64,000 bases of DNA from an uncultured Candidatus Saccharibacteria bacterium (GTDB lineage Bacteria; Patescibacteriota; Andersenbacteria; UBA10190), in the NCBI GenBank assembly GCA_964372635.1, contig CAYJQW010000001.1, forward strand, positions 4,083-68,082. Direction: 5' to 3'. The notes beneath the pieces were generated by a model, which saw only the letters and a list, made by a program, of their open reading frames with translations, ran no database searches and was not told the DNA's origin. Both the position numbers and the translations under genes were made by a program. Shown here in pieces: positions 1-12,807 of the stretch (its first letter is position 1; each line of letters starts with the position of its first letter).

Positions 1-262
1 CCAGGACCTAACGAGGCTTTGAATCCGTAAGGAGTGTAGCCGCCAACCTCGTTCGCAGGCGTTCATACTCGTCACCTGGCGTGACCTTCTGGGCAACTTA
101 TGGGTAAGGTGGGCTGTTGAGTGGCTACGGTCATATTTTCATGATACGGGATTTGCTCCGAATTGTCCCTAAAAGTAGTCTATTATTGGCTTATCTTAGC
201 TTTTGTATTGTATCTACTTTGCTCTAATAAGCCATATTTTAGCGTTTTGTGCCATCTGGCTA

Positions 263-291
263 TTGACATTTACATACAATAGGAGTATACT
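263..291 (+). promoter_or_regulatory. sigma70-like promoter: TTGACA, 17-nt spacer, TATACT
   Basis: TTGACA at 263-268, a 17-nt spacer, then TATACT at 286-291. No convincing ORF follows for about 1.2 kb. Confidence 0.5.
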
Positions 292-456
292 GCACCGTTA
301 CGCTAGAGATGGAGGTAACGGACGAAGCGAAGCACCTTTAAACGAGTCGCCCAAGGGCGAACCTCGCCAAAGGCGGGCCACCTTAGCAAGCCCCAAACCT
401 ACGCAAGGAAAACAGCCAAAGCTAGGCAAGGGTAAAAGAAGCCCAGATATAGTCTA

Positions 457-483
457 GCCTTCGCCAAGGCTACGGCGGGCAAG
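457..483 (+). repeat. Island motif A copy 1 (gccttcgccaaggctacggcgggcaag)
   Basis: Direct repeat of the 579-606 copy. It shares the core GCTACGGCGG with copies at 2136, 7981 and 11579. Confidence 0.6.
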
Positions 484-578
484 ACCAAGGGACACCCTCA
501 GAAATGCTCCAAAATGACCCTTGACAAGATTGACTAAGTATGCTAGGATGGCCGCAACATTAAAACACCAACAGCCCA

Positions 579-606
579 GCCTTCGCATAAAGCTACGGCG
601 GGCAAG
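579..606 (+). repeat. Island motif A copy 2 (gccttcgcataaagctacggcgggcaag)
   Basis: Identical to copy 1 at 26 of 28 aligned positions, 122 bp downstream in the same orientation. Confidence 0.6.
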
Positions 607-647
607 CCGAAAGGCACCTGAACTTTTCAATCCAAAGACGGATCATA

Positions 648-666
648 AATCAAGAGAGAGACCGGC
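648..666 (+). repeat. Motif B copy 1 (aatcaagagagagaccggc)
   Basis: Matches 1104-1124 (aatcaagagagagatcctggc). The similarity extends upstream as ggatc..taatcaag. Confidence 0.45.
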
Positions 667-781
667 AACTGCAACCAGCGCCGGGGTAGAAATACCGAAG
701 ACTGGCAAGAAGCGGTTAGGTGAAGTGTCTTCTCTCTTAAAGATTAATGACACGTCAACTAGCCGCTTCTTCTATATATGA

Positions 782-822
782 GCCAGAGATTGGGTGAGAT
801 AAAATCGCACCCAGCCTCTGGC
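782..822 (+). other. Long imperfect hairpin (GCCAGAG.TTGGGTG / CACCCAG.CTCTGGC)
   Basis: A 7+6 bp stem with an 11-nt loop, read directly from the sequence. It lies in the non-coding leader. Confidence 0.4.
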
Positions 823-1103
823 CCAAGAGAGATTGATAGTAGTTTAACAATAATAAATAGTACAGCGCTGACCAGACGGTGACCTGGGATTAGAAACCAG
901 TAGCCTGGCTATGCGGGATCGTACCAAAAGCGGCAATGTGAACAGTAGGTTCACCTTCCGCCCATGTGTCCTAACAGACCAAACACTATTTAAGCATTGG
1001 GTTGCTAGCTAGGATGCAGTGGCGGAAGAATAGTTCTTTATTGAAGCGTGTTACGGTTTTAGGCAATGAAGGGATTCGATAAACTCACCCTAAAGGGATC
1101 GCT

Positions 1104-1124
1104 AATCAAGAGAGAGATCCTGGC
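1104..1124 (+). repeat. Motif B copy 2
   Basis: See 648-666. Confidence 0.45.
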
Positions 1125-1228
1125 CTAAGATAACGTAACCCACATCAAGGTTCCCCACCTATAAACGTATAGCTGGGTCTTTCCAAGCGACTGGCATGAA
1201 CCAACGTCCTGTTGAACGATGGGCACGT

Positions 1229-1250
1229 CCTGTCGTTCACGAACGACAGG
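1229..1250 (+). other. Perfect 10-bp hairpin CCTGTCGTTC-ac-GAACGACAGG
   Basis: Inverted repeat read directly from the sequence, flanked by direct gcacg. The upstream acgtcctgt is also duplicated. Confidence 0.45.
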
Positions 1251-1503
1251 GCACGGATAACAATGTCGCTCGGCTCATCGGCATCTACCTTGAAGCTGAT
1301 GCAGTATTCAGAAACCAAGGCCTGCGTAAGCGGGCCGCAGTCCAGCACTGAGCTTTGCTCTAGTGCTGTGGCATTCCCGTAAGGGACGTGGTGCGGATGA
1401 GCGGGCTTAACCACCCGATCAAACTCAGCCGCACTCGCCCCGGCTCGTTATCTGAAGTTAACGAGCTCGTAGGGATTAACCATCCGCCTAAAAAGGAGGT
1501 GTT

Positions 1504-1971
1504 ATGGTTACTTTTACACCCCGCCTCCTTGAGGCGGATGTGTTCCCGAGCGTGCTGTTCCCGGCGCGCTCCGTGTACGTCTCGTACACGCAAGCTCAAA
1601 AGGCTTGGGGACTGGTTCGGCGAAACCAGCCGTGGGATCCGAAAAATCCCTCGGAAGGAATCGCCAGGCTGCTCCGCGCCGACGTGGCGTGGGAGCTCCT
1701 GGGTCCAGACCAGAGCTGGGATGACGTGCGGTTGTATACCGCCGTCGGATCCGCCCTGGACTGGCACCGGATCGACGGCTGGATCGAATACCGTGGAAGT
1801 CAAGTCCAGCTTGACTACACGGCCAATCCGGCCAAGCTCCTCGAGGAGTGGTATGGAGATTCACTTCTCCTACCGCCGACTCTCGAGGAGCCGTTGGTTC
1901 GGGCGAAGTTGGCCGCAGTCATTGCGGACGAACTTCGCCAGGGCATGGCAGCCCGCGCTCGACCACGCTAG
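1504..1971 (+). CDS. Hypothetical protein (155 aa)
   Basis: A strong RBS (AAGGAGGT) sits 6 nt before the ATG. The amino-acid composition is protein-like, chosen over overlapping alternative-frame ORFs that are typical of GC-rich DNA. Confidence 0.5.
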   Translation: MVTFTPRLLEADVFPSVLFPARSVYVSYTQAQKAWGLVRRNQPWDPKNPSEGIARLLRADVAWELLGPDQSWDDVRLYTAVGSALDWHRIDGWIEYRGSQVQLDYTANPAKLLEEWYGDSLLLPPTLEEPLVRAKLAAVIADELRQGMAARARPR

Positions 1972-2135
1972 CGTAGTCGAGCATCGTCCCCTCTGCATAG
2001 GCACTGCCACATTACGTGGAAATGTAGAGGTAAAAAAGTGCCATCGAGCTAACTCACAGCCGTTTCTGACTGTGCCTTAGCTCTTTCCCTAGCTTCTACT
2101 TTTTAGTGAAAGTAGGCGCTTGGCGAAGGACTCTT

Positions 2136-2157
2136 CTTCGCGTAAAGCTACGAAGGG
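2136..2157 (+). repeat. Island motif A copy 3 (cttcgcgtaaagctacgaaggg)
   Basis: Matches copy 2 at 19 of 22 positions. It lies between the 1504 gene and the terminator of the 2263 gene. Confidence 0.5.
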
Positions 2158-2183
2158 TTGTATCTTTGTAGTCTTGAAGATGA

Positions 2184-2216
2184 AACAAAAAAAGCCCACT
2201 TCAAAAGAAATGGGCT
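2184..2216 (-). terminator. Rho-independent terminator for the minus-strand gene 2263..2886
   Basis: On the minus strand, an AGCCCA / TGGGCT stem with a 12-nt loop is followed by TTTTTTT. Confidence 0.5.
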
Positions 2217-2239
2217 TATATCAGTAGTTAAACCTTGGC

Positions 2240-2265
2240 TTACCCTGAGCAACGTCAAAGGGTTA
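2240..2265 (+). repeat. Motif C copy 1 (ttaccctgagcaacgtcaaagggtta)
   Basis: Contains the ACCCT..AGGGT inverted repeat. Matches 4166-4189. Confidence 0.45.
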
Positions 2266-2886
2266 CCAGAGCTCATCATTCATGATTGAGCGGAAACGAT
2301 CTTCTTGCGAGGAAGGCTCTGCTGTACGTTGTGCTTCTCGCCAAATCTTCTTATCCAGCTCGGCGCCGGTTTCTATCGGCAGCCAGCTGATGGGCAGATC
2401 AGCCAGCGATGAAGCAAAGGTGCATAAATAGCGCCGCGTAGCTTCAGTAATTTCTACTTCATCGATTTTTTCTCCTTGCATGGGAATTTTACAGAAGTAA
2501 CGGTCGCGAATAATTGTTGTGTGATCACGCTGAATCAAGAGCTCGGCTTGATCTGGAGCAATTATATTGAGCCTATCAATTTCTGCCGCTCTATCGTCTG
2601 CTGCTGCCTGCTTGGTAAATAGCGTACCGAGCATAGCAATCTCTTTTTGGTCATTGACCAGATACAGGTTAAGACAGCGACCGGTTGAATTTTGTGGAAA
2701 CTGATATGGCTCACTAGCAAAGCAAGCGAGTTCATTTGGCGTGGTTATAGCTAACGTGTCCAGGAAATCCTGAGTGGGTTCCCAGACTAAGGCCGCACGC
2801 TCTTCATTAGTGTGAACCTCCAACAGCAAAGTGCGGCTGGCAATAACGGCCAAAGTGACATCGTAATCGTTGATAATAATGCTCAT
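2263..2886 (-). CDS. Hypothetical protein (207 aa)
   Basis: An AGGAG RBS precedes the ATG at 2886 and the terminator lies downstream. No motif was recognised. Confidence 0.5.
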   Translation of the reverse strand: MSIIINDYDVTLAVIASRTLLLEVHTNEERAALVWEPTQDFLDTLAITTPNELACFASEPYQFPQNSTGRCLNLYLVNDQKEIAMLGTLFTKQAAADDRAAEIDRLNIIAPDQAELLIQRDHTTIIRDRYFCKIPMQGEKIDEVEITEATRRYLCTFASSLADLPISWLPIETGAELDKKIWREAQRTAEPSSQEDRFRSIMNDELW

Positions 2887-3159
2887 CGCATCACGTTTCT
2901 CCTATAAAAGGGGTGAAAAGAGCAAAATGGAGTGCCCAGACTATGCCATATAAACATAAATAGCGCAAGTTCAGGTGAGACACGCCTGTGTGTAAGGCTC
3001 TTACACTCAACCGTGTCTCTCGTGTGTTTACGAGAGCGACGCGGGTTCTGCAAGCGCATCAGCATCTGCGTCGTCGTTAGTTTCTCTCCAATGAAACTGT
3101 TGTCCATAGGTAGCCATGCCTATGTGATGCGCACAACGGTTTCTCGAAAGGAGAATAAC

Positions 3160-4011
3160 ATGGCTTTTTTGACTTCGAACTTGGTTGCCCCGAAGTTGAT
3201 CTCCGAGGCCTCGGCTGAAGAGATTGAAAACGTCTCTGCCCGGCTGACGCCGGAGCAGATGGACGCTTTGAACCGCGCGGAGACGCGCCGGATCGAAGCT
3301 GCCAAGGCGCAGCCAAAAAAGGAAGAGCAGCCACGGAAGGCTGCACCCGCCAACCCGAAACCTGCTGCGTTAAACCAGCAGGCCAAGGCAGCCCGCATCC
3401 TGCGGGCCAAAGGTCACCGCGAGGCGGCTCAGGCGGTGGGGGGTCAGGTGTCCCCCCGAGAAGTTATCGTGGCCCTTGAGGCTGCGATGAGGGACAAGGA
3501 AGTCCCGGGTGGCATCCGCTTTGGGCGGATCAAGCCACTTCTCAACGAGTTCGACGACAATGAGGCGCGCGACTTGTTCACGCGATTCATGAAGGAGGTG
3601 GCGCAAGCTGCCTTCGTGTTGAACTCGGCACACCTAGCTGCCGGGCAGGCTTTCTCTGCCCAGGCAGCGCTACGCCGCGCCGCTGGCGTGCGCTTTGAGG
3701 GTCGCCACATGGCGTCCATCGAGCGCATGCTCGTAGGGAATTCACTTCCCGACGAGGCGACCCGGCCATTAGCGGATTATCCGCAACTGGCCGAGGCCGT
3801 GCCATCGGCGCTCGCGGCGGCGCCGCGACGGCAGGCTAGAACCCTGCTCACTGGCCTGACGAACCCCCTGTGGGCCATCGTCAAGCCGGCTATCGAGCAG
3901 GCTCGGCAGAGCCAGACTAGGGTTAATAACCCAAAATCTGGCTTTTCCGGTGCAAAAACCGGAAAAACCGCCCGCAAAAAGGCGGCTGCCGTGGCGCAAA
4001 AAAATTCCTAG
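3160..4011 (+). CDS. Hypothetical Ala/Lys/Arg-rich protein (283 aa)
   Basis: An internal ATG at 3160 follows a GAAAGGAG RBS. The ORF-track start at 2932 lacks an RBS. The C-terminus is basic. Confidence 0.5.
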   Translation: MAFLTSNLVAPKLISEASAEEIENVSARLTPEQMDALNRAETRRIEAAKAQPKKEEQPRKAAPANPKPAALNQQAKAARILRAKGHREAAQAVGGQVSPREVIVALEAAMRDKEVPGGIRFGRIKPLLNEFDDNEARDLFTRFMKEVAQAAFVLNSAHLAAGQAFSAQAALRRAAGVRFEGRHMASIERMLVGNSLPDEATRPLADYPQLAEAVPSALAAAPRRQARTLLTGLTNPLWAIVKPAIEQARQSQTRVNNPKSGFSGAKTGKTARKKAAAVAQKNS

Positions 4012-4079
4012 TGCAAGGACGCACTAGGTCAGGCTTTACATGTTGTGCCTGACAACAAACAATGTGGGTTTCTGAAGAT

Positions 4080-4108
4080 TGTGAAGAAAAATTGGTTTTT
4101 TTTCTTCA
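4080..4108 (+). terminator. A/T-rich hairpin terminator (GTGAAGAAAAA-ttgg-TTTTTTTCTTCAC)
   Basis: An 11-bp stem that includes a T-run, immediately after the stop at 4011. A second hairpin at 4027-4052 is GTCAGGC / GCCTGAC. Confidence 0.5.
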
Positions 4109-4165
4109 CAACTTCACGGAGATCGTCATTTGACAATCAGGTTTACTTTCAAACAAAGCCGAAGT

Positions 4166-4189
4166 TTACCCTGAGCGAAGTCGAAGGGT
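4166..4189 (+). repeat. Motif C copy 2 (ttaccctgagcgaagtcgaagggt)
   Basis: Matches 2240-2265 at 21 of 24 positions. Confidence 0.45.
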
Positions 4190-4383
4190 GGTTTGCGTGA
4201 AGGAGACGTAGTGCTCGTGAGTTTTTTTACTCATGTGCATCCGCCCCCTTCGTGGTTCGAAGGATAAGGCCAGCTATTGTCCGTACCTCAATTGCTGGAA
4301 GTGTTCATTTTTTCTCCTTGGGTTTGCCATTCCCAAGGCGGTACGAGATACGTTCACCTTGAAGAAAAAGAAAGGAGAACACT

Positions 4384-5202
4384 ATGGCAAAAAATCTGTG
4401 TTTACGTGTGTCTCGACACACAAACCAGGTCGAGCCGCGCCTAGCGGCGCTGCGTCCCGTCTTCGGATTGGACGTAGAAATACATCATGAGGATGTACAA
4501 TACCGCGGTAATCCGCGACAGGCCATACAGGCTGTCCTTGACCGACTGAAGAGTGAAGGCCACCAGGTCGTCGGGGTCGAGGTGGTCGGCGGCGCCGACA
4601 TCCTTGAACAGCTCGTCGGCCCAAACGGCTTAGAGCTCCCTGTATTGCAAGCGGAATTTGCCCGCGACGTCGAAGGACAAATCAAGACGGCGGGCAAAGA
4701 AGCTGGCAGTGGCCGAGACGTATTTGCCTTTGGGCGATATGTCCAGGTCAAACGAGCTGGTGTTAACAAGCGCCCGTTCGAGGCAGCTGATCTACCCGTC
4801 TCGGGGTCAATCCGCGTGGGTTGGATCAGTCGCGACACGGATGAGCAGCTCGTTGACATGCGCCGCCAGGCGCTCGAGCATCTTCTACCGGGTCGGTCGG
4901 TCGAGCTGGTCGTCTTCGACTGCAAATTCGGAGATGACCCATTAACGGCCATCAAGGCGGCGTTGCCTGATGGTCTACACGCCCTGGACCCCGGCGCTGG
5001 CTTCGTTTACACGAAGTTGGTCGGCGACCGCGGGTCAAGGTTGGGAGTACCGGTTTTGAACGCTCGCTTTGAGTGTGAGCCGGGAAGCCGCCGGGCCAAA
5101 GTTGTTGGCCAGGATTCTCGTGGACGTGATATCCTCGCGTTTACGGGATACGACTTGGTCGAGAGCCTCGTGCTCGAGACCGAGCCTCTTGTTGGGTCAT
5201 AG
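4384..5202 (+). CDS. Hypothetical protein (272 aa)
   Basis: An AAAGGAG RBS precedes the ATG. This is the first gene of the + strand run. No motif was recognised. Confidence 0.55.
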   Translation: MAKNLCLRVSRHTNQVEPRLAALRPVFGLDVEIHHEDVQYRGNPRQAIQAVLDRLKSEGHQVVGVEVVGGADILEQLVGPNGLELPVLQAEFARDVEGQIKTAGKEAGSGRDVFAFGRYVQVKRAGVNKRPFEAADLPVSGSIRVGWISRDTDEQLVDMRRQALEHLLPGRSVELVVFDCKFGDDPLTAIKAALPDGLHALDPGAGFVYTKLVGDRGSRLGVPVLNARFECEPGSRRAKVVGQDSRGRDILAFTGYDLVESLVLETEPLVGS

Positions 5203-5222
5203 GGCTCAGCAAGCTGTTAAAT

Positions 5223-5254
5223 TAGGGGAGTGTTGGTTTCTAACCTCCCCTCTA
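5223..5254 (+). terminator. Terminator-like hairpin (TAGGGGAG ... CTCCCCTCTA) followed by a T-rich tract
   Basis: A 7-8 bp GC stem, then ctttgttcctctc. It lies between the genes ending at 5202 and starting at 5325. Confidence 0.3.
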
Positions 5255-5324
5255 CTTTGTTCCTCTCAAATCATTTTGAGATGTGCAATGTTGATAAGTT
5301 TTCAAAATTCCAAAAAAGGAGGAA

Positions 5325-6269
5325 ATGATGAAAATTCAGATCCAAAAAAACGCCGAGTTTAAACTGCTTTATTTTGAACTCAGCGTCTGGGGAGTCAACC
5401 CCAGTGTGGTCGCCCATAAAATCAATGAGGTGGCCGAGCAGCTGGCTGGACCGGAAACGGTGCTGCTGCGCGGACAGGGTCCGGTGTGGGTGTACGCGAT
5501 GCTGACGCACGCGGCCCATGCTTGCCCCAATGTGGCCACCTTCGAGCCTCGCAAGGAAGGGTTCGTGGTGGCAACGTGTCACAACGGCCGTTGGCTGCCG
5601 GGCGAGGTCATTCCTGCTGCCACCATCGGTATGATGGTGGATGGCGGGAAAATCGTGGGTGGTGACGAGTTCATGGAGCGACCACGGTTGGTCATCTCCG
5701 TGGGCGGTCCTGCTCACTCCGGCAAGTCAATCTTTCTGGCCGAACTGTACCGACAGCTGCTGACCAGAATGCCCGGTGAGGTATTCCTCCAGCGGGCATG
5801 CCCAGATGGCGAGGGGATGTGGTCGGCGGAGTCTGACCCCACCTTGGCGCAAGCCATTCGCCAGAAGGGCAAGTTCACGGAGAATTTCTGCTCATGGTTG
5901 GCCGATGCCATCCAGGGACTCAAGCGGGGTTTCAAGATCACCCTGCTCGACTTGGGCGGCAAACGGTTGCCACCCAATGACGAAGTTCTTCAGCATTCCA
6001 CCCATCTTCTGGTTCTTTCCTCCAACGAGGATGAGACCAAAGCCTGGATGGAGTATGGGCGCGAGCACGGCTGCGAAATCATCGCTGCTTTTTCTTCTCG
6101 CCTCCTCAAGCTCGAGAGCGGTGAGCTTGATGCAACCGTCCGCTCCTCGGTGAGCCTGACTGCCGAGCCGGTACAAGGGGAAATGGTGAATCTGGACCGT
6201 GGTGGTCCGGTCACTCCCTATCAGGAAGCTATCAGCCAATTTGCCGACTGGTTGATCGCCAAGGTATAG
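5325..6269 (+). CDS. Two-domain P-loop NTPase: an unknown ~130-aa N-terminal domain plus a kinase-like P-loop domain
   Basis: AAAGGAGG RBS. A Walker A motif is present in VISVGGPAHSGKSIFLAELY, and a Walker B-like ITLLDLGG follows. The N-terminal domain (KLLYFELS...GQGPVWVYAMLTHAAH) was not recognised. Confidence 0.6.
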   Translation: MMKIQIQKNAEFKLLYFELSVWGVNPSVVAHKINEVAEQLAGPETVLLRGQGPVWVYAMLTHAAHACPNVATFEPRKEGFVVATCHNGRWLPGEVIPAATIGMMVDGGKIVGGDEFMERPRLVISVGGPAHSGKSIFLAELYRQLLTRMPGEVFLQRACPDGEGMWSAESDPTLAQAIRQKGKFTENFCSWLADAIQGLKRGFKITLLDLGGKRLPPNDEVLQHSTHLLVLSSNEDETKAWMEYGREHGCEIIAAFSSRLLKLESGELDATVRSSVSLTAEPVQGEMVNLDRGGPVTPYQEAISQFADWLIAKV

Positions 6270-6408
6270 TCGGTAGGTTTCTTTTCCGGTTTGCATGTTT
6301 CTCTAGCCTTAAAACATGCCTGATCCGAGAGTGCGTACTCTCGCTGACGAGTCTTAAAAAGACGAAATCAGAAACTAGCACGTTTCCAATTGAAACGGAG
6401 ATGCTGAG

Positions 6409-6753
6409 ATGAAAATACTGTGGATGTCGCGTCATACGCCAACTCCCCGGCAGCTTCAAGCGCTGCGGGAGAGACACGGCGAAGACACGGTTGTGGAGCA
6501 AGAATCCAAACCGTTCGATGACGCGCGGCAGATCGCCCGTCGGTACCGCAGCGGTAGCTATGACGATATTGTAGTCGTGGCACCACTTTCGGTAATTGAC
6601 GTTCTGTGCAAAGAAGGCATTCAGCCTCTTTGGTCAGAGGCAGCCGAGGAAAACGATCCGAAAAAGATTGAATTCCGCGGTGCCCGCGGACAGGGCTATC
6701 GTTTCGTTCGGTTCCGCCGCATCAAGTGCGTGCGGATTGAGTTCGAAGACTGA
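6409..6753 (+). CDS. Small hypothetical protein (114 aa)
   Basis: A GGAG RBS is present. The stop lies 22 nt upstream of the AAA+ gene start. The N-terminus, MKILWMSRHTPTPRQLQAL, looks alpha/beta-like. Confidence 0.5.
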   Translation: MKILWMSRHTPTPRQLQALRERHGEDTVVEQESKPFDDARQIARRYRSGSYDDIVVVAPLSVIDVLCKEGIQPLWSEAAEENDPKKIEFRGARGQGYRFVRFRRIKCVRIEFED

Positions 6754-6774
6754 TTCCAAACAAAGGAGAAAACC

Positions 6775-7989
6775 GTGAACGATTTGTTGCAGAAGGCGAT
6801 CGCTCTGGCGCCGAAAGTTCAGAGCACTGCACATGACGTGCAGACCCGGCACATTGGACGCAGCGACGTGGTGCAAGCCGCGTGGCTGTCACTCGTGTCG
6901 GGCCGTCCCGCGTTTTTCTTGGGGAGCCCCGGTATTGATAAAACCGGGACGATCCAGGACATGGCGCGGCGGATTGGCGGAGCTGTCTTCTATGACGTGC
7001 TCATGCCGACGATTGTTTCAGTGGAGCAGCTGCTCGTCGAGTCTACCTCGATCGAGGAGGTGCCCGCTGCCAACGGCGGCAAAGCCATCCGCACCCGTGA
7101 CACGCTCGGACGGGCAGCGCTGGCGCACCTGCTCTTCGCTGATGAGATCTGGAAAGCGGAACCTCGCGTTCTGCAGACCCTGATCGACTTGAGCAAGGGC
7201 GACGGTGTGCGACATGAAGGTCAGATGGTAAAAACACCACTCCTGGCTTTCCTCGCTGCCAGCAACGAACTGCCGGAACCCGAGGGCAACCTCGGTGCCG
7301 TGTGGTCCCGCATGACCATCCGTGTGGTGGTCAACCCGCTGGATCGCGCGGGCAAGCAGTCGTTGGTCAAAGCTCGTCTGAACCGGAGTGCCAACAGTGT
7401 TTCGTCTGCAGCTCAGCTCACGCTGGCTGACGTCGAAATGCTGCGGGCCGCCCGGCGTCACGTTGATGTTCCGCAAGGTGTCGTTGATACCGTGCTGGAC
7501 ATTTACCAGGAACTGCTCGACGACAAGTCGGCAGATTTTTCCTGGGCGTGGTCAGACGATCGCCGCTTCGGACGCGTGTTCGATGTACTGCAGGCCAAGG
7601 CACTGCTTGACGGCCGCACAACGGTCGGCAAGCACGATGTGGCGGTGCTGGAGTGGCTGCTCTGGGATATTCCCGAGCACATTCCGCTCGTCAAAGCCAA
7701 GCTCGCGCCGTACTGCCGGACGTCGCTGTCTGAGGCAGTTGAAGTGGTCGATGCTCTGCTGTCCCCCAGCGGAGTGGTCGAAACGGTTCGCAAGGGGGAT
7801 CGGCTGAAGGGTGTTCAGGCCATCACGCAGTGTGAGGCCGCCCTTTCCGAACTCAAGCGTCTCCAGAGCGAGGCGGACAGTGTGATGTCTTCCAAGATTG
7901 CTGACCTGGTTAGCCAGGTGGAAGCGGTCAAGCAGGACGTCTTCGCTGTTGTGACCGGGGCGCGAAAACCCCAGCCGGCCTCCGCGTAA
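6775..7989 (+). CDS. MoxR-like AAA+ ATPase (AAA_5 type)
   Basis: GTG start after an AAAGGAGA RBS. Walker A is GSPGIDKTG. Walker B is LLFADEIWKAEP, followed by the VLQTLIDL helix. Sensor-1 is LAASNELPE. The C-terminus has a coiled-coil extension. Confidence 0.7.
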   Translation: MNDLLQKAIALAPKVQSTAHDVQTRHIGRSDVVQAAWLSLVSGRPAFFLGSPGIDKTGTIQDMARRIGGAVFYDVLMPTIVSVEQLLVESTSIEEVPAANGGKAIRTRDTLGRAALAHLLFADEIWKAEPRVLQTLIDLSKGDGVRHEGQMVKTPLLAFLAASNELPEPEGNLGAVWSRMTIRVVVNPLDRAGKQSLVKARLNRSANSVSSAAQLTLADVEMLRAARRHVDVPQGVVDTVLDIYQELLDDKSADFSWAWSDDRRFGRVFDVLQAKALLDGRTTVGKHDVAVLEWLLWDIPEHIPLVKAKLAPYCRTSLSEAVEVVDALLSPSGVVETVRKGDRLKGVQAITQCEAALSELKRLQSEADSVMSSKIADLVSQVEAVKQDVFAVVTGARKPQPASA

Positions 7990-8007
7990 AGCTACGGCGG
8001 CCAAGGG
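7981..8007 (+). repeat. Island motif A copy 4 (tccgcgtaaagctacggcggccaaggg)
   Basis: The motif's TAA is the stop codon of the AAA+ gene. Its 3' end runs into the GGGAGG RBS of the VWA gene. Confidence 0.55.
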
Positions 8008-8015
8008 AGGTAACC

Positions 8016-9686
8016 ATGAACGAGAAAAAACTTAAGTCTCTCTCGAGGCAAGAGTTACAAAAGCTCTTGGTGTCGGACGCGGATGCTTTCACAGCATTGC
8101 GTTATCTGCGACACCGAGAGGCAGTCCCGGTGCTTCCCGAGCTCGAGGAGCAAGGACAGGATGTTCTTCCCGGAAGCGAAGGAGTGCTCGCGGATCTCTA
8201 CTACGGATTGTGGAATCCGGAGCCTACCCTCAAGGATGAGGTAGCGCCGGATCGTCAGTACTGGCAGCAAATGTTAGGCCAAACGATTGAAACATCGGCC
8301 TATCAAGAGCTGCACGCGGCCACGCAACTCAAGGAGCTGCAGTCAATTCTCGGGACAATCACCATGGGCGAATCTGTCCTGGCGATGGTGCCGAAGAAAG
8401 ACCAGCAAAAACTCCAAGAGGTGCAGGAAGCGTCCGAAGACGCCAAGGATTTGGCGGAAACAGCAGCAGAGGCCGAAGCAGCAGCGCAAGCTGCCCAGCA
8501 GTTGGCTTCAGCCGCCGCCAAGGCTATGGCCGACAAGGATGCTGTCCAGCAAGGTTCGGGCTCGCCCGCCGGAGCGCAAGCGAAGGCGGGTCAGATGGAC
8601 CCAAAGCAAGCACGAGAGTTGGCCAATGAGTTGGCTTCGGCCGCCGCCAAGGCTATGGCCGACAAGCAAGCAGCTCAGGAGTTGGCTCAAGAAGCTAAAG
8701 ACCGTGCCCAAGAACTTTCTAAGAAGTTACTGGGCAAGCCGGGTAGTGAGCAAGCGGAGCAAAAACTTCGTGAGCTCACCCGCATCGGTTTACAAGCCGC
8801 GCGTAACGCCCAAGCTAAGGTGGAGGAGGTTTCCGAAACCATCGAAGCCTGGGGTTTGGAGCAAAGTGAGCTGACACGCCAAGGGATTCCCGAGGCGCTG
8901 GCGCTACTTCAGCGCATGAAGCGCAATGCAGCGCTCAAGCAGTTCGCCGGACTTCTCGGCCGCCTTCGCAAGATTGCGGCTCGGAAGGCTCGCTCTAAAA
9001 CAGCCGGAGAAGGAGTGCGGGTCACGGTTCCGGAAACGGGCCGGGATATTCGCCGCGCTCATAGCTCTGAGCTGGTTGCGCTTGTTCACCCAGCACTCCG
9101 CGTTAAAGGATTGACGCGTTGGGCACGTGGTGAACTGCGGTTGGTTGGTCAGCGCACGAAGCAGAAGCTTGGTCATGGACCGGTCATCGTCTGTGAAGAC
9201 GGATCCGGTTCGATGGAAGGAGCCAAGCAGCAGTGGGCAAAGGGAGTGACACTGTCACTCGCTCACTATGCGAAACTCCAAAAGCGGTCGTTCGGGTGGG
9301 TACTCTTTGATAGTGCTGTAAAGCAATCAAGGAATTATCCGCAAGGACGATTGACTGCCGAGCACATGCTTGAACTGGCCGAGTCGCGGGCCGGTGGCGG
9401 AACTGACTTTGAGTCACCGCTTAGAGCCGCCATCGAAATGATTCAGAAGGAAGGCCTTAAAAAAGCCGACATCTGCTTTATCACTGATGGTGAGTGCGCA
9501 GTCAGCGACGAGTTCCTTCGGGAATTTCTGGCGGTCAAGAAGACGTACGAGGTCAACGTGTTTACAGTTCTCTGCGATGTTGGCTCGACGTCTGACGCGA
9601 CTGTTCAGCAGTTCTCGGATCAAGTGGTTCGCGCTTCAAGCTTCACGGCAGAAGAAGCTGAGGTTGCGGTGTTTGGTTCTTTATAA
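8016..9686 (+). CDS. VWA-domain protein with a MIDAS motif and an Ala/Gln-rich coiled coil
   Basis: GGGAGG RBS. The C-terminal domain has the VIVCEDGSGSM MIDAS motif (DxSxS) with the later conserved T and D residues (GGTDFE, FITDGE). The central segment contains an internally duplicated LASAAAKAMADK. Confidence 0.75.
   Translation: MNEKKLKSLSRQELQKLLVSDADAFTALRYLRHREAVPVLPELEEQGQDVLPGSEGVLADLYYGLWNPEPTLKDEVAPDRQYWQQMLGQTIETSAYQELHAATQLKELQSILGTITMGESVLAMVPKKDQQKLQEVQEASEDAKDLAETAAEAEAAAQAAQQLASAAAKAMADKDAVQQGSGSPAGAQAKAGQMDPKQARELANELASAAAKAMADKQAAQELAQEAKDRAQELSKKLLGKPGSEQAEQKLRELTRIGLQAARNAQAKVEEVSETIEAWGLEQSELTRQGIPEALALLQRMKRNAALKQFAGLLGRLRKIAARKARSKTAGEGVRVTVPETGRDIRRAHSSELVALVHPALRVKGLTRWARGELRLVGQRTKQKLGHGPVIVCEDGSGSMEGAKQQWAKGVTLSLAHYAKLQKRSFGWVLFDSAVKQSRNYPQGRLTAEHMLELAESRAGGGTDFESPLRAAIEMIQKEGLKKADICFITDGECAVSDEFLREFLAVKKTYEVNVFTVLCDVGSTSDATVQQFSDQVVRASSFTAEEAEVAVFGSL
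8502..8666 (+). repeat. In-frame 36-bp direct repeat inside the VWA gene (8502-8537 and 8631-8666)
   Basis: The two copies match at 35 of 36 nt and are spaced 129 nt apart. Each encodes LASAAAKAMADK. Confidence 0.7.
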
Positions 9687-9695
9687 GGTTTCTGT

Positions 9696-9724
9696 GAGAC
9701 TAGATGTCTGCCGCATCTAGTCTC
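9696..9724 (+). other. Perfect 11-bp hairpin GAGACTAGATG-tctgccg-CATCTAGTCTC
   Basis: It starts 10 nt after the VWA gene stop. It has no U-tract, so it is either a rho-independent-like structure lacking the tract or a protein-binding palindrome. Confidence 0.45.
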
Positions 9725-9815
9725 CTCTGTCTCCCGGTGTGTTACTGGGACTGATGAGACTTACAAAGTCGAAACAGAGGACATTTACAACATTCCACGA
9801 CGAAAGGAGCCTACC

Positions 9816-11408
9816 TTGGCGTCCCAACTTATCGTTTCGCTGGAAGCCAGGGAAGGCAAAAACCCTGGTGAGGCGATTGGTACTTACCAAAGGTGCCACA
9901 TCGTCTTCTTGCCCCACGGGACGCCGGTCGACGTCACTGTCAGGGTTGTGCTGGAAGAAATCACAACTAAAAAAGACAGTGCCGGTCGGACGATGTACCG
10001 TGGCGTGCCAGCCCCGGTTGAGTACAGCGATCGCTGGAAAAACAATGGCGACGGAACGATCTCCAAGATCACCGTCTCCAAGGACTGGCTTGGTACTGAT
10101 TGCGAGGAAGGCATCATTGAAACACGCCAACTCGCAACACGTGAGGGTGCTCCGTATACTCGAACTGAGCGTCAGGTACGCTGGGGTTCTACCTTGGCAG
10201 CCTGCACTGTTGATGTCGCTGACATCACGACCATTCCCACGGAAGTGGAGATGGTGCAGAACGGGCAGCTCGGCTGGCGAAAAACCAGCGAGCGGGAGGA
10301 GAAATCTTCATGCTCTGTGTCAGTCACGGACGTGCGAGTGACGAGCCTGGACAGCACTGTGTGGCAGTCCTCGTATCCGTCTGAGTGGCAGCTTTCGGCA
10401 GCAGTAGACCATGATGGTACAAGCATCTCGGTGCGTGTGCCGTGGTCGAATGCACCGAAGGAAGTGCGCGAGCGGATCGAGAATCGCTACCCGGTCTGCG
10501 TCTGTGGTCGCCAGCGTTACGACGTGCAAAATTCCGACGGCTACCTCAAGTGCGAGAAGTGTCGGGAAGAAGAGCACTGCGTGCGTTGTGGCAAGCAGGC
10601 AAAGGTTGCGGTCATCAGTAGTCGCTTAATTTGTGCGAACTGCAAACCGTATGAAGAGCAGGAACAACTCGTTAATCGAGTTTGCTCTGTTCAACAGCGG
10701 CAAGCACTAGCGCAACAAGCGACGCGGCTCTTGGCAGGTAATGCCGTGCCGCGCGAAGCTGGTGAAGCGATCATGCGCTCTACGCTTGGTCACGTTGAGC
10801 CGGAATGGAAACGAAACGACCTCGCACAGAAACATGCCGGGTACGCCTGGTACTACTTCTGCGATGAGGGCGTCTACGGTTCCAAGTTTCCTTCGGCGGC
10901 TCTGCAGATTCTGCAGGGATTGTCGGAGGCATCCGGAAACGGCGTGGTCGAGTTGGTCGCATGGCTGACAGGCTACCAGAAGGTTGATGACTGTGAGCGG
11001 TATGGAGATTTCTTCTGCCGCACGCAGGTGAGGGGAGAGACTGTCACTCCCACCTTGACTGAAAGCAGCCTGCAACGGCTGATCTTGACAGTGAAGCTGC
11101 GAGGTTCAGAAGCTGATCGCATCGAGGTATTGCAAAAGTATCGGGCTATGACCGAAAGGCCGTACCCTGATGCCGAGCAAACAAGAGCAGTCGCAGATAT
11201 CCTGAGCAGCGATGCGCAGGACTATGCGGCGGCACTGGCCAAGATGCGCGAGGCGGAAGAGCTTCGTATGGCACAAGAGCAGAGGAAGCAGCAAAAGCTT
11301 TTTTCTTCTCAGTCAACACCTGTTACTCCCACCGATAAGGACGAGAGTAAGCAGCGGGGACTGGAAAATCTGCTCAACAAGTGGGGCGACCCCCACAAAA
11401 AACAATGA
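9816..11408 (+). CDS. Hypothetical 530-aa protein with an N-terminal TRAM-like beta-barrel and a Cys4 zinc ribbon
   Basis: TTG start after an AAAGGAG RBS. The N-terminus GEAIGTYQRCHIVFLPHGTPVDVTVRVV follows a TRAM-like pattern. A CxxC-(13)-CxxC cluster sits at residues ~230-250. Additional CxxC pairs (CVRC ... CANC) follow within ~30 residues. The C-terminus is a Gln/Glu-rich coiled coil. Confidence 0.55.
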   Translation: MASQLIVSLEAREGKNPGEAIGTYQRCHIVFLPHGTPVDVTVRVVLEEITTKKDSAGRTMYRGVPAPVEYSDRWKNNGDGTISKITVSKDWLGTDCEEGIIETRQLATREGAPYTRTERQVRWGSTLAACTVDVADITTIPTEVEMVQNGQLGWRKTSEREEKSSCSVSVTDVRVTSLDSTVWQSSYPSEWQLSAAVDHDGTSISVRVPWSNAPKEVRERIENRYPVCVCGRQRYDVQNSDGYLKCEKCREEEHCVRCGKQAKVAVISSRLICANCKPYEEQEQLVNRVCSVQQRQALAQQATRLLAGNAVPREAGEAIMRSTLGHVEPEWKRNDLAQKHAGYAWYYFCDEGVYGSKFPSAALQILQGLSEASGNGVVELVAWLTGYQKVDDCERYGDFFCRTQVRGETVTPTLTESSLQRLILTVKLRGSEADRIEVLQKYRAMTERPYPDAEQTRAVADILSSDAQDYAAALAKMREAEELRMAQEQRKQQKLFSSQSTPVTPTDKDESKQRGLENLLNKWGDPHKKQ

Positions 11409-11578
11409 AAAATATTCTTGTTGGAATTGTTTGTTCCATCAAGCAGGAAATTCTGGGAAGCGCCTGGCATTATGCAAAAGCTTCCCTTCTTCTTACAGTC
11501 AGCAAGTATTGCTTGTCGGCTGTAATCAAGAAATACTACATGTAGCCGCTATGAGGCTGCATAGTCAGCGTCTTCCAC

Positions 11579-11599
11579 CGTCGCGTAAAGCTATGGTGG
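11579..11599 (+). repeat. Island motif A copy 5 (ccgtcgcgtaaagctatggtgg)
   Basis: Core cgcgtaaagcta. It lies in the GC transition zone at the right edge of the island. Confidence 0.45.
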
Positions 11600-12141
11600 A
11601 CGCCGTGGGAATCGAATGATTAAATCGATGCGATCCGTCCGCCAAAAAAGCGGATTCTATCTCTCTCTTGATCCCGTAAAATCGCCGTTGGCGGTCACGG
11701 GAGGTAACAAAGATTTGATGATTCGTATAATTTCTCAGGCACTGCTGGCTTGCAGCCTTGTGGCGGTTATTTTTTATTTTGCCCTTTGTGTCCGGGTTTT
11801 TTATCTGGCTTTTCCGAAATTCGGTATTGCCAGTTCGCCGGTTACTTGCTCTAATCCCCCAGCGCCAAAGGCTTCGGAGGGACACAGTAAGGTTCTAACT
11901 TGCTTCTTAAAGGCGGACTTTCTATTAAGAGAAGAGAGGTATCTCCTCTCTCATGACGTTTGCTACTCTCACTGCTCTCACCTCATTCAGTTTCCTCAGG
12001 TTTCGAGATGAACTAGAAAATTCGAGTCATATTAATTTTACATTACTAAATGGTGGCTGACCCATTCCCTACCCTGACTCCATTACCTACCCCGACTGTT
12101 TTTGGTTTATTGATCTTTTCGATACACTATAGAGTAAATTC

Positions 12142-12492
12142 ATGCCTGACATCATTCTCATTAAAAAACAAATCAGCCGAGAAAAGCTTAAAGAGATTGC
12201 GCAGCTGCGCTTCGGTGACTTGGTTAAAGCGGTTGTTGATATTGAGAAAAATATTATGGCCATTGGCGGTGAACTTCATGCGGACGAAGAAGCATTTCTA
12301 CTTGATAACGGATCTGAACAGAAAAACCTATGGGGTATTAATCTTTATCCTGAACTTGCACTGCCCGATATGCTTGAGTTTGATTCTATGATTAATATTC
12401 GGCCACAATCAGGTAATTCATCTCGCAATATCGAAGACTCGGAAATAAAGCAAAAGATAACTGCCCTAGTTGGCACGCTAATCGAGGAATGA
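12142..12492 (+). CDS. Conserved small hypothetical protein (116 aa)
   Basis: A low-GC ORF. It is the first gene to the right of the island. Confidence 0.45.
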   Translation: MPDIILIKKQISREKLKEIAQLRFGDLVKAVVDIEKNIMAIGGELHADEEAFLLDNGSEQKNLWGINLYPELALPDMLEFDSMINIRPQSGNSSRNIEDSEIKQKITALVGTLIEE

Positions 12493-12495
12493 TAT

Positions 12496-12807
12496 ATGGA
12501 TTGGGCAACATTAACTATCGCCGAGCAACTGGGAAATATTGGGAGTGAATTCGAACGAGCAGTTCGCTGGAAGCAGCGTGGCAGGCAGGCTTTCGCCTGG
12601 AACGCAGCCGTGCGGACATTAGCCCAGCTTGATAAAACTCTGACCGATTCGCGCCACGCTGGTCATCGGCGGCGAGAGATCGCACGGTTGCGCGATGAAG
12701 TGTGCGACGTGCTATTTTCTGACCAACTGAAAACTCAATCTGCACAGCAGCTCCAAAGATATTTCATGGCTTTTGCAACTGCTGCCCGTAAAACTTCTCG
12801 TCCATAA
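12496..12807 (+). CDS. Hypothetical helical protein (103 aa)
   Basis: GAGGA RBS. It starts 4 nt after the previous stop. Its GC (~52%) is higher than its neighbours. Confidence 0.45.
   Translation: MDWATLTIAEQLGNIGSEFERAVRWKQRGRQAFAWNAAVRTLAQLDKTLTDSRHAGHRRREIARLRDEVCDVLFSDQLKTQSAQQLQRYFMAFATAARKTSRP

Follow-up and report, generated by a model that had tools for sequence, protein, structure and literature searches.

Does the MoxR-like AAA+ ATPase encoded beside a VWA protein in DNA of an uncultured Candidatus Saccharibacteria bacterium serve a conflict system or a chaperone? A first-pass annotation of the 64,000-nucleotide stretch analysed here (the window) left both options standing, and placed the pair in a foreign island with a tightly coupled small upstream gene and uncharacterised neighbours. 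The three open reading frames that it reported are present, all on the plus strand, and the 530-aa gene downstream (p530) is real (Table 1). The gaps between the three are indeed small, at 21 nt and 26 nt, each one nucleotide shorter than the 22 and 27 nt first given. With dN/dS at 0.16-0.26 against the closest relative, the genes are evidently real and subject to purifying selection.

Table 1. Features of the island, in window coordinates.
Feature	Position	Strand	Remarks
GC-rich genomic island	1..11600	.	left end beyond window edge; right border ~11.4-12.1 kb
p155	1504..1971	+	island cargo gene; called on Logan contig L031/L035; particular to present island variant
p207	2263..2886	-	island cargo gene
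p283	3160..4011	+	island cargo gene; 282 aa as called on L031
p272	4384..5202	+	probable divergent tandem duplication of p114 domain
Csx3-P-loop	5325..6269	+	Csx3/Crn3 ring-nuclease-type domain (~1-100) fused to P-loop NTPase (~118-314); Pfam, PADLOC
p114	6409..6753	+	114 aa, ATG; small Rossmann/flavodoxin-like alpha/beta domain protein; optional accessory gene
MoxR-class AAA+ ATPase	6775..7989	+	404 aa, GTG start; bpMoxR, AAA_lid_8, AAA_5, RavA 3nbx, phrog_19600
31-nt hairpin-like repeat	7975..8005	+	island non-coding DNA; one of five copies
VWA/MIDAS protein	8016..9686	+	556 aa, ATG start; VWA_2, phrog_24053, invariant MIDAS residues
p530	9816..11408	+	third partner; predicted TRAM-like beta-barrel, beta-rich region, zinc ribbons, helical domain

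Proteins of the locus and the island that carries them

The Walker A (GSPGIDKTG) and Walker B (LLFADEIW) motifs were found in the 404-aa protein as described and, together with the sensor-1 'ASNE' and DDRR motifs, are at least 95% conserved among 20 MoxR homologues. The suggested AAA_5 match was obtained (E 1.7e-6), and the best Pfam match was bpMoxR (PF20030; E 5e-19, 68.6 bits, cut-off 27), accompanied by AAA_lid_8 (E 9e-10) and, in PHROGs, phrog_19600 (1e-29). The closest solved structure is RavA (3nbx; E 5e-27 over residues 12-308), and the protein comprises a RavA-like AAA+ module followed by ~95 aa of helical tail; LARA is absent. In the 556-aa protein, a conserved, Ala-rich helical N-terminal region of ~380 aa precedes a C-terminal VWA domain, in which DGSGSM occupies residues 395-400 as had been noted and the MIDAS residues D395, S397, S399, T463 and D491 are invariant across 15 homologues. 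Pfam VWA_2 was matched above its cut-off (E 1e-6, 29.8 bits, cut-off 27), whereas VWA_CoxE, the other family proposed, scored below its own (22.4 vs 26.4 bits); phrog_24053 matched over the full length (3e-58).

The structure of p530 was predicted with confidence (pLDDT 89) and had no global structural match, and no Pfam domain or enzymatic motif was found in it, long forms included. Only the N-terminal TRAM-like barrel and the zinc ribbons (C228, C230, C273 and C276) are recognisable in the model, and these suggest that p530 may be a new RNA-binding-type protein. Its C-terminal extensions are hypervariable, with lengths ranging from 530 to 923 aa.

Domain matches and composition thus uphold the description of the pair as a MoxR-class AAA+ ATPase and a MIDAS-bearing VWA protein within a foreign island. 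GC content is 52-59% from position 1 to ~11.5 kb and ~43% in the remaining window, and GC3 is 0.58-0.71 in island genes against 0.35-0.43 in host genes. Comparable, sharply bordered GC-rich islands of 8-12 kb occur at other loci of Patescibacteria (CPR), with a sharply bordered GC/GC3 shift in nearly all lineages, and the sequences suggest that the island is exchanged horizontally within this group. On contig L035, a 5'-truncated tRNA gene (anticodon GTA, Tyr) precedes position 1 by ~217 nt. Among the cargo genes, p155 has no Pfam match and no relative in other islands (hhalign), p207 has no match in Pfam, PADLOC, NCBIfam or PHROGs and no counterpart in other islands, and p283 matches no family in the same four collections. 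A start at 3160 is preferred for p283 over the longer reading frame from 2932, based on an RBS-plus-start motif, GAAAGGAG..ATGGC, repeated at 3146-3164, 4370-4388 and 9802-9820. In a repeat search, the 31-nt repeat formed family D1, whose copies are 65-100% identical to the reference; the further ones lie at 453-483, 576-606, 2131-2161 and 11574-11604. The window holds no CRISPR-array-like tandem repeat, and the island no Rfam RNA.

Gene linkage across related loci

Approximately 45 related loci were compared, nearly all from CPR; a scan of species-representative genomes yielded at least 21 loci with the patterns used, which is a lower bound. When the VWA protein served as bait, all 20 CPR genome loci showed MoxR, VWA and p530 in collinear order; when p530 did, every metagenome locus with room for the gene in question carried it (18/18 for VWA, 12/12 for MoxR). 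In the census that had been proposed for the 530-aa gene, the linkage is obligate, p530 co-occurring in every CPR locus with sequence at that place. More than 240 full-length VWA homologues share 50-80% identity; all those with names are from CPR, and their similarity is incongruent with the taxonomic labels. The closest homologues lie outside chelatase, Cox and Nor operons, and the lack of a cognate metalloenzyme extends from the scanned island genes to the related loci with examined gene calls.

The small gene p114, which had been called tightly coupled, proved to be optional. It is present in ~11/22 loci by ORF clustering, in 2 of the 11 metagenome loci with enough upstream sequence, and in roughly 40% overall; its place is downstream of p530 in some loci, and in two (L004 and L005) it carries a frameshift or truncation. 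Many members of its family are tandem, with two copies per 220-265 aa, and p272 is probably a divergent tandem duplicate of the same domain: profile comparisons gave E-values of 0.0025 and 4e-4 (hhalign), and a broad p114 profile matched p272 with a full E-value of 1e-3 (hmmsearch), the first copy covering HMM positions 6-111 and the second appearing in fragments.

The near-universal upstream partner is instead a Csx3-P-loop gene that the annotation had overlooked among its uncharacterised neighbours, a label that cannot be kept for this gene. This gene precedes the triad in ~17/20 genome loci and in 11/11 metagenome loci, and the flanking genes, p530 and Csx3, are conserved with the pair. Its product matches Pfam Cas_csx3 above threshold (1.4e-12) and PADLOC Csx3-AAA (2.9e-41), and scores under the TIGR02579 equivalog cut-off. 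In an alignment with A. fulgidus Csx3 (3wzi), G45, H57, H60, R71 and H80 are kept and D69 is replaced by Glu; with residue roles taken from PMC7371418, four of the five catalytic residues are retained, and the change at D69 is conservative. The P-loop domain was not assignable to any kinase family, and no finer typing was obtained. Homologues on cyanobacterial plasmids are annotated as Crn3.

Accessory gene content differs between islands. The variable genes encode SAVED (Pfam 9e-7, PADLOC 3e-18), Csx15-like (2e-7 to 4e-6, weak), AAA-Csx3 (5e-49) and HD-like proteins, the last matching HD below its threshold, and a CARF-associated small protein ('Unk_01, sometimes fused to CARF', 6e-11). Three assignments are weak, namely Csx15-like (because of its E-values), HD and the kinship of p272 with p114, although for the last the separate profile matches agree. 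Toxin-antitoxin genes (HEPN/MNT, HicB, PIN) lie within or adjoin the islands. No signal synthase (Cas10 or CD-NTase) was found in the islands, the inspected related loci or the scanned window ORFs, no recognisable toxic effector domain was found, and PADLOC did not recognise MoxR, VWA or p530.

Candidate functions of the module

The best reading of these observations is that the MoxR-VWA pair forms the core of a three-protein module of MoxR ATPase, VWA/MIDAS adaptor and p530. The changing accessories, with p114 in single or tandem form among them, would be sensors or degraders of cyclic oligonucleotides. Since the pair travels with p530 and almost always with Csx3, a conflict system is more likely than a metal-enzyme chaperone; of the two options offered by the annotation, the former is the better, given the bpMoxR match and the company of Csx3, SAVED, Csx15-like and CARF-associated genes. 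Our leading interpretation, with a probability of roughly 0.4, is a CPR-specific ternary MoxR-VWA conflict system, most likely for defence, with a new third component and a link to cyclic-oligoadenylate-type signalling. The GC/GC3 shift, variable accessories, toxin-antitoxin genes, taxonomic incongruence and hypervariable p530 C-terminus are counted in favour of defence; the obligate triad, the intact ATPase and MIDAS motifs and the dN/dS values also speak for this reading. Counting against a conflict system are the missing synthase and toxic effector, the PADLOC blank for the triad, a VWA architecture and host group unlike those of published ternary systems as far as PMC7159879 describes them, the three weak accessory assignments, and the presence of distant relatives on plasmids and jumbo phages, a location equally compatible with a mobile-element function.

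What we infer, in the putative scheme that follows, is how the proteins interact physically, which ligand and which RNA are involved, and that the action is defence, not counter-defence. The VWA protein would grip p530, or a complex containing it, via the MIDAS site, and the MoxR hexamer would use ATP to remodel or free it. In turn, the TRAM-like barrel and zinc ribbons of p530 might let it work on RNA. Csx3/SAVED-type proteins would set the module's state, or reset it, by binding or cleaving a cyclic-oligoadenylate-like signal.

A possible but less probable interpretation is that a mobile element left the island as a remnant or carries it as cargo. MoxR-VWA would then serve the element, for example in its assembly or establishment, and counter-defence would fall to the Csx3, Csx15-like, SAVED-only and p114 proteins, which would degrade the cyclic-oligonucleotide alarm signals of the host or sequester them. 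Such a function is assumed for the plasmid and jumbo-phage pairs. Homologous pairs are known from large plasmids (five phyla), from Bacillus phage 0305phi8-36 and a Moorella phage, and from ATV, and the phrog_24053 and phrog_19600 matches, the foreign GC3 and the tRNA gene adjoining the island both here and in L026 point the same way. Viral stand-alone ring nucleases are anti-CRISPRs, and Csx15 is a suggested sponge (PMC12409355); IMG/VR viral contigs include some with p114 homologues, in one case beside an integrase. However, the island loci examined showed no integrase, transposase, replication or structural gene, and a search for att-like repeats of the tRNA 3' end found none. Csx3-P-loop had no match among 50,697 phage records, p530 was not found in IMG/VR, and CPR and plasmid/phage proteins are only ~30-35% identical. 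The islands are also flanked by housekeeping genes, ~14 loci adjoining the same pair of host-GC genes (a TrmB-like regulator and a large GNAT-containing protein).

A chromosomal neighbourhood conserved across many CPR genomes, together with strong purifying selection, would suit a housekeeping or repair system directed at RNA or RNPs, in which MoxR-VWA remodels an RNP or loads p530 on tRNA or rRNA, and Csx3, P-loop and HD-like proteins, the latter two also carried by islands, process RNA ends. VWA domains are also found in Ro/TROVE RNA-repair scaffolds. The N-terminal barrel and zinc ribbons of p530 fit such a role, as does the initial characterisation of Csx3 as a Mn-dependent RNA-cleaving enzyme, an RNA deadenylase, in work cited in PMC7371418. 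This proposal is nonetheless unlikely: the islands yielded no RNA ligase, nucleotidyltransferase or methylase, the P-loop domain falls in no kinase family, Rfam RNAs are missing from the island, and the apparently sporadic distribution, foreign GC3 and taxonomic incongruence speak against a core function. Far less likely still, and disfavoured, is a classical chaperone of the RavA-ViaA, CoxD-CoxE, NorQ-NorD or chelatase-like kind with its metalloenzyme or respiratory-complex target encoded elsewhere. The structural proximity to RavA, weak NCBIfam matches to RavA (2e-28) and ViaA (4e-13) and the weak VWA_CoxE match favour it, but the scores for RavA, ViaA and VWA_CoxE are far under the family cut-offs (99.5 vs 681, 49.3 vs 500 and 22.4 vs 26.4), the LARA domain is missing, the loci with examined gene content encode no target enzyme and the constant partners are p530 and Csx3. 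CPR genomes, moreover, largely lack respiratory complexes.

Comparison with known systems

The published ternary MoxR-vWA conflict systems, on which the bpMoxR family was defined, comprise VMAP, iSTAND, FtsH and beta-propeller types (Kaur, Burroughs, Iyer, Aravind, eLife 2020, PMC7159879). The likeness proposed in the annotation stands in that adjacent MoxR and vWA genes are joined by a third conserved protein, with variable signalling or effector genes and horizontal transfer. It does not extend to architecture: in the published systems, as described there, vWA is N-terminal and effector domains C-terminal, whereas the VWA domain here lies behind the helical region and has no effector fusions, and the third component, p530 with its TRAM-like barrel, zinc ribbons and helical domain, has no Pfam match. 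The published systems are enriched in multicellular bacteria (actinobacteria and cyanobacteria), the present one is found in unicellular CPR with small genomes, and the available text of PMC7159879 describes no association with Csx3, SAVED or Csx15-like genes.

E. coli RavA-ViaA resembles the pair in its AAA+ module and in the N-terminal region and C-terminal MIDAS-bearing VWA domain of ViaA, and differs in its LARA domain, in its LdcI or respiratory-complex context and in equivalog scores that neither protein here approaches. Distant MoxR-VWA pairs (0305phi8-36 gp66/gp63, ATV p618/p892, and those of cyanobacterial, Brevibacillus, Streptomyces and Nocardia plasmids) share the two-gene order, in many cases with a small ORF that precedes or separates the genes, and the full-length VWA resemblance, and none has a metalloenzyme target. 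Identity to them is only 24-36%, no Csx3 gene adjoins them, and the recurrent third partner of the plasmid pairs is DUF6744, unrelated to p530; the ATV pair is linked to tail development, as cited in PMC7824862. Type III CRISPR-Cas Csx3/Crn3 shares with the upstream gene the Pfam domain and the retained H57, H60, R71 and H80, and the P-loop fusion fits the PADLOC Csx3-AAA and AAA-Csx3 models of accessory proteins. Glu at position 69, the sub-equivalog score, and the lack of a CRISPR-like array in the window and of Cas10 in the scanned ORFs and inspected loci distinguish it from the type III proteins, as does its coupling to MoxR-VWA-p530.

Properties of the MoxR and VWA proteins

The three ORFs described in the first-pass annotation were recovered with the same limits (see table), with gaps of 21 and 26 nt between them. 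The 404-aa protein has the Walker motifs reported there (A, GSPGIDKTG; B, LLFADEIW), which, together with ASNE, are at least 95% conserved among 20 homologues. The suggested search for Pfam AAA_5 gave a score above threshold (28.6 bits; cut-off 22), and bpMoxR (5e-19, 68.6 bits; cut-off 27) and AAA_lid_8 (38.6 bits; cut-off 22.8) were also matched. Judged by its motifs, sensor 1, lid and Pfam model above threshold, the protein is a MoxR-class AAA+ ATPase. The nearest solved structure is that of RavA (E 5e-27), with a match confined to the AAA+ module (residues 12-308). RavA is 498 aa long and has a C-terminal triple-helix and LARA domain, whereas the window MoxR aligns over the AAA+ module only and scored 99.5 bits against a cut-off of 681 with NCBIfam PRK13531; it was therefore rejected as a RavA equivalog.

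A VWA domain with an intact MIDAS forms the C-terminus of the 556-aa protein, as had been stated. The domain occupies residues 390-553 with nothing downstream, and the MIDAS residues (DxSxS...T...D; D395, S397, S399, T463 and D491) are invariant among homologues. The proposed VWA/CoxE assignment held only in part: the generic VWA_2 (29.8 bits; cut-off 27) was the sole VWA family model passed, and VWA_CoxE fell short (22.4 bits; cut-off 26.4), while the ViaA model scored 49.3 bits against a cut-off of 500. More than 240 full-length relatives share 50-80% identity with the protein, and those with names belong to Patescibacteria (CPR). The MoxR, VWA and p530 genes are under purifying selection (dN/dS 0.16-0.26 against the nearest relative). 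The N-terminal helical region of the VWA protein contains a duplicated Ala-rich segment (…LASAAAKAMADK…), which is encoded by a direct repeat in the gene.

Coordinates of the features discussed (window positions, except where a related locus or contig is named by an L number)
Feature	Location	Remarks
p155	1504-1971	
p207	2263-2886	
p283	3160-4011	
p272	4384-5202	
Csx3/P-loop gene	5325-6269	
p114	6409-6753	114 aa
MoxR	6775-7989	404 aa, GTG start
VWA	8016-9686	556 aa
p530	9816-11408	530 aa
Stretch with no convincing ORF	1-1500	GC 48-56%
Long palindromes	~707-771, 779-825, 1229-1250	
31-nt hairpin-like element	453-483, 576-606, 2131-2161, 7975-8005, 11574-11604	copy 7975-8005 covers the MoxR stop and sequence between MoxR and VWA
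57-nt direct repeat in VWA gene	8493-8549, 8622-8678	84% identity
18-nt tandem repeat	12057-12097	just upstream of the first genes right of the island
DUF5674 protein and 103-aa ORF	12142-12807	right of island; DUF5674 match 2e-36; both of host-like GC
Baseplate_J-like ORF	34205-35404	399 aa, between DnaE and ThrRS; E 4e-6
5'-truncated tRNA-Tyr	L035 1-69	~217-286 nt left of window position 1
p114 homologue, frameshift-split	L005 8127-8520	WWE3 genome
p114 homologue, truncated	L004 8251-8475	closest relative of the window
Two HEPN/nucleotidyltransferase (MNT) pairs	L004 6196-7679	toxin-antitoxin type, between Csx3-AAA and MoxR
Repeats bracketing MoxR-VWA-p530	L020 7146-7860, 14084-14816	
Repeats bracketing MoxR-VWA-p530	L022 8124-8177, 14197-14250	
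Repeats bracketing MoxR-VWA-p530	L013 4628-4778, 6283-6490, 13856-14164	
Repeats bracketing MoxR-VWA-p530	L014 6791-6859, 14261-14329	
DUF6744 gene beside MoxR-VWA	L002 4846-5742; L032 9018-10103; L033 5050-6090	plasmids of Brevibacillus, Streptomyces, Pseudanabaena

Conserved and variable neighbours

With the VWA protein as bait, a scan of species-representative genomes and context look-ups yielded 20 CPR loci, which were scored by tblastn and HMM. MoxR, VWA and p530 were collinear in all 20, a Csx3/P-loop gene lay upstream in about 17, and p114 was found in about 11, sometimes downstream of p530. A metagenome scan with p530 as bait gave 27 loci, a few of them identical to genome loci; counted over loci with enough sequence, VWA (18/18), MoxR (12/12) and Csx3/P-loop (11/11) were always present. 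A small ORF that is absent from the window (family F10) directly preceded MoxR in 8 of 11, and p114 was present in two of 11, with one further locus carrying it downstream of p530. The first-pass annotation had asked for such a census of the 114-aa and 530-aa genes, regarding unconserved flanking genes as evidence against its reading. The flanks proved to be conserved, p530 always and Csx3/P-loop mostly; p114 is optional, and the tight coupling claimed for the small upstream gene was not upheld.

The p530 fold combines a TRAM-like barrel with a beta region, zinc ribbons and helices, and contains neither a propeller nor an NTPase. The N-terminal barrel is a candidate TRAM domain, judged against the five-stranded barrels of MiaB, RimO and RumA and the Pfam TRAM model. 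Its profile matched no PDB sequence, its long homologues contained no Pfam domain, and no relatives were found among phage proteins in BFVD and IMG/VR. Two candidate relatives were rejected: DUF6744 (hhalign probability <1%) and a 390-aa zinc-ribbon protein that precedes MoxR in a Bacillota MAG, to which no relationship was found. From its modelled fold, p530 may be a structurally new RNA-binding-type partner of MoxR-VWA.

The gene directly upstream of p114, overlooked in the first-pass annotation, encodes a fusion of a Csx3/Crn3 domain with a P-loop NTPase (Pfam Cas_csx3 1.4e-12, 47.7 bits, cut-off 21; PADLOC Csx3-AAA 2.9e-41). In Csx3, H57, H60, D69, R71 and H80 are catalytic, and these residues and G45 are needed for cA4 cleavage (PMC7371418). 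Alignment to A. fulgidus Csx3 showed that H57, H60, R71, H80 and G45 are retained in the window protein, and that D69 is replaced by E, S44 by R and R46 by Q. The protein is a candidate Crn3/Csx3 ring nuclease; the Pfam domain passes and the TIGR02579 score is under its cut-off (41.3 bits; cut-off 55.4). No kinase or GTPase family could be assigned to the P-loop domain. An accessory gene of type III CRISPR-Cas was rejected, since neither a Cas10 locus nor a CRISPR array adjoins it: the 64-kb window has no tandem repeat resembling an array, the large window ORFs scanned are housekeeping genes, and the related loci inspected hold no Cas10-like family.

The p114 model (AF2, pLDDT 94) shows a Rossmann/flavodoxin-like domain of five strands, the first of which is followed by a Ser that is invariant and a His that is nearly so. 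Structure comparison gave no specific neighbour and the sequence profile nothing specific in the PDB; distant relatives showed no informative domain fusions, and phage and plasmid records gave no match. At 50% identity the family falls into 616 clusters, in many of which the domain is present as two tandem copies, and p272 probably represents a divergent tandem form of it. A member adjoins a MoxR-VWA pair in a Bacillota MAG. Because the homologue is split in WWE3 and truncated in the closest relative of the window, it is suggested that some islands can do without p114 and are losing it.

Among the variable island genes, unbiased ORF clustering recovered a SAVED protein (F25; Pfam 9e-7, PADLOC 3e-18), a family matching 'Unk_01, sometimes fused to CARF' (F17; 6e-11), and weakly Csx15-like (F19) and HD-like (F15) families. 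No Cas10, CD-NTase, integrase or metalloenzyme was recognised in the islands' gene calls and shared ORF families, and p155, p207 and p283 had no relatives in other islands.

Composition, borders and exchange of the island

The foreign island noted in the first-pass annotation was confirmed: from position 1 to ~11.6 kb the sequence deviates in GC (52-59% vs ~43% elsewhere in the window) and GC3 (0.58-0.71 vs 0.35-0.43 in host genes). The remainder is ordinary chromosome (RF-1, FtsW, DnaE, ThrRS, GatB, GyrB, PheT, iPGM). Nearly every CPR locus contains a similar block of 8-12 kb, 10-20 GC points above its flanks and with sharp borders, which in about 14 loci adjoins the same host-GC pair, a TrmB-like regulator and a large GNAT-containing protein. 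The nearest neighbours of the VWA proteins disagree with taxonomic labels; the two Saccharibacteria loci are not mutually closest, and a WWE3 protein pairs with one from Doudnabacteria. A contig reaching left of the window carries a 5'-truncated tRNA-Tyr (47.9 bits vs Rfam tRNA; anticodon loop GTA, long variable arm) with its 3' end towards the island. That end is not repeated at the island's right border, where there is no att-like repeat, nor do tRNAs lie consistently at the borders of other islands. Neither the window nor the related islands examined showed an integrase, and toxin-antitoxin genes occur in or beside several islands. Given the GC blocks, the shared flanking pair, the taxonomic discordance, the tRNA without att and the toxin-antitoxin genes, a horizontally exchanged genomic or defence island fits better than a self-mobile element.

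Several side observations were made. Genes for HicB and PIN/PhdYeFM lie beside other islands (L008, L005). The same island is present in MAGs that bear the labels 'uncultured Gammaproteobacteria' or 'Bdellovibrionales' (L017, L018, L020-L022, L024, L025), most with the TrmB-like/GNAT pair, and these labels are probably wrong. The Baseplate_J-like ORF of the host region could be a phage-derived or contractile-system remnant. The five copies of the 31-nt element in non-coding island DNA have a consensus of approximately CCNGCCTYCGCRTAAAGCTACGGCGGNCAAG. A stretch of 1.5 kb lacking an ORF, as at the left end of the window, is unusual in a compact CPR genome; Rfam gave no match there, and in the island only the tRNA fragment. 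Between islands, conservation of non-coding sequence extends no further than 30-90 nt. In several CPR islands MoxR-VWA-p530 is bracketed by non-coding direct repeats (75-94% identity, up to ~700 nt) that are particular to each locus and not conserved from one island to another; these could represent promoters or leaders in repeated form, regulator sites, or sites of recombination.

Function of the module and its relation to known MoxR-VWA systems

The MoxR-VWA pair itself stands as first described, and of the two functions proposed for it, conflict or chaperone, the conflict system is the better supported. No cognate metalloenzyme was seen among the island genes, the loci examined through gene calls or annotation, and the shared CPR ORF families, as the first-pass annotation had noted for the window. 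Metalloenzyme-maturation pairs (CoxDE, NorQD, CobST, BchID, CbbQO) were rejected for want of a cognate enzyme in the neighbourhood, and RavA-ViaA, CoxDE and chelatase types also for scores far under the cut-offs; a classical metalloenzyme chaperone is therefore disfavoured. The preferred reading, to which a probability of about 0.4 is given, is a ternary MoxR-VWA conflict module with p530 as a new third component, linked to cyclic-oligoadenylate-type sensor and ring-nuclease proteins. We infer every interaction and ligand of this module, and its weak points are that neither a signal synthase nor a recognisable toxic effector was found in the island.

The main rival, that the genes are the cargo of a mobile element whose ring nucleases or sponges serve counter-defence, is unlikely. 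The p114 family occurs on four viral contigs lacking MoxR-VWA, one of them beside an integrase. A role in RNA or RNP housekeeping or repair, on which the RNA-binding-type fold predicted for p530 would bear, ranks after it as quite improbable. The fullest form of the conflict reading is itself doubtful: CPR would possess a CRISPR-independent nucleotide-second-messenger immune module in which Csx3, SAVED, Csx15-like proteins and p114 gate an ATP-driven MoxR-VWA that activates p530 as a new class of RNA-targeting effector, with p114 as a new minimal CARF-like sensor or ring-nuclease fold, single or tandem.

Patescibacteria form a large share of bacterial diversity, and to our knowledge descriptions of their defence systems are few. 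Here, with no CRISPR locus in the vicinity, a conserved, exchanged island joins a MoxR-VWA remodelling pair, p530 and ring-nuclease/CARF-type proteins. The literature searched contained no description of this module; the link between Csx3-type proteins and a MoxR-VWA machine in CPR appears to be unreported, and the island defines two uncharacterised families. If this is a conflict system, it would extend the ternary MoxR-vWA concept to a new host group with a new third component, 'orphan' fusions of Csx3 and P-loop beyond type III CRISPR would gain a functional context, and p530 and p114 would be defined by confident models suited to experiments.

Ternary vWA-MoxR conflict systems comprise MoxR, a vWA protein and a conserved third component (VMAP, iSTAND, FtsH or a beta-propeller), with the vWA domain N-terminal and variable C-terminal effectors (PMC7159879). 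The CPR triad resembles these systems in having an invariable third component in one neighbourhood, but differs in its C-terminal VWA domain without a downstream domain and probably in p530, whose fold contains no propeller or NTPase. Phage MoxR-VWA pairs have been regarded as putative assembly chaperones (PMC2147016, PMC7824862). Distant pairs (24-36% identity) were found in viruses, namely ATV, a Moorella phage and Bacillus phage 0305phi8-36 (gp66/gp63), and on large plasmids whose hosts are cyanobacteria, Brevibacillus, Streptomyces, Nocardia, Alicyclobacillus and Clostridium. The window VWA protein gave a full-length match to phrog_24053 (3e-58). In three phyla the plasmid pair has the gene of an uncharacterised DUF6744 protein next to it as third member, whereas the CPR pair has the unrelated p530. 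Plasmid, jumbo-phage and CPR pairs have each recruited a different third partner, which points to a modular 'remodeller plus client' logic of MoxR-VWA pairs.
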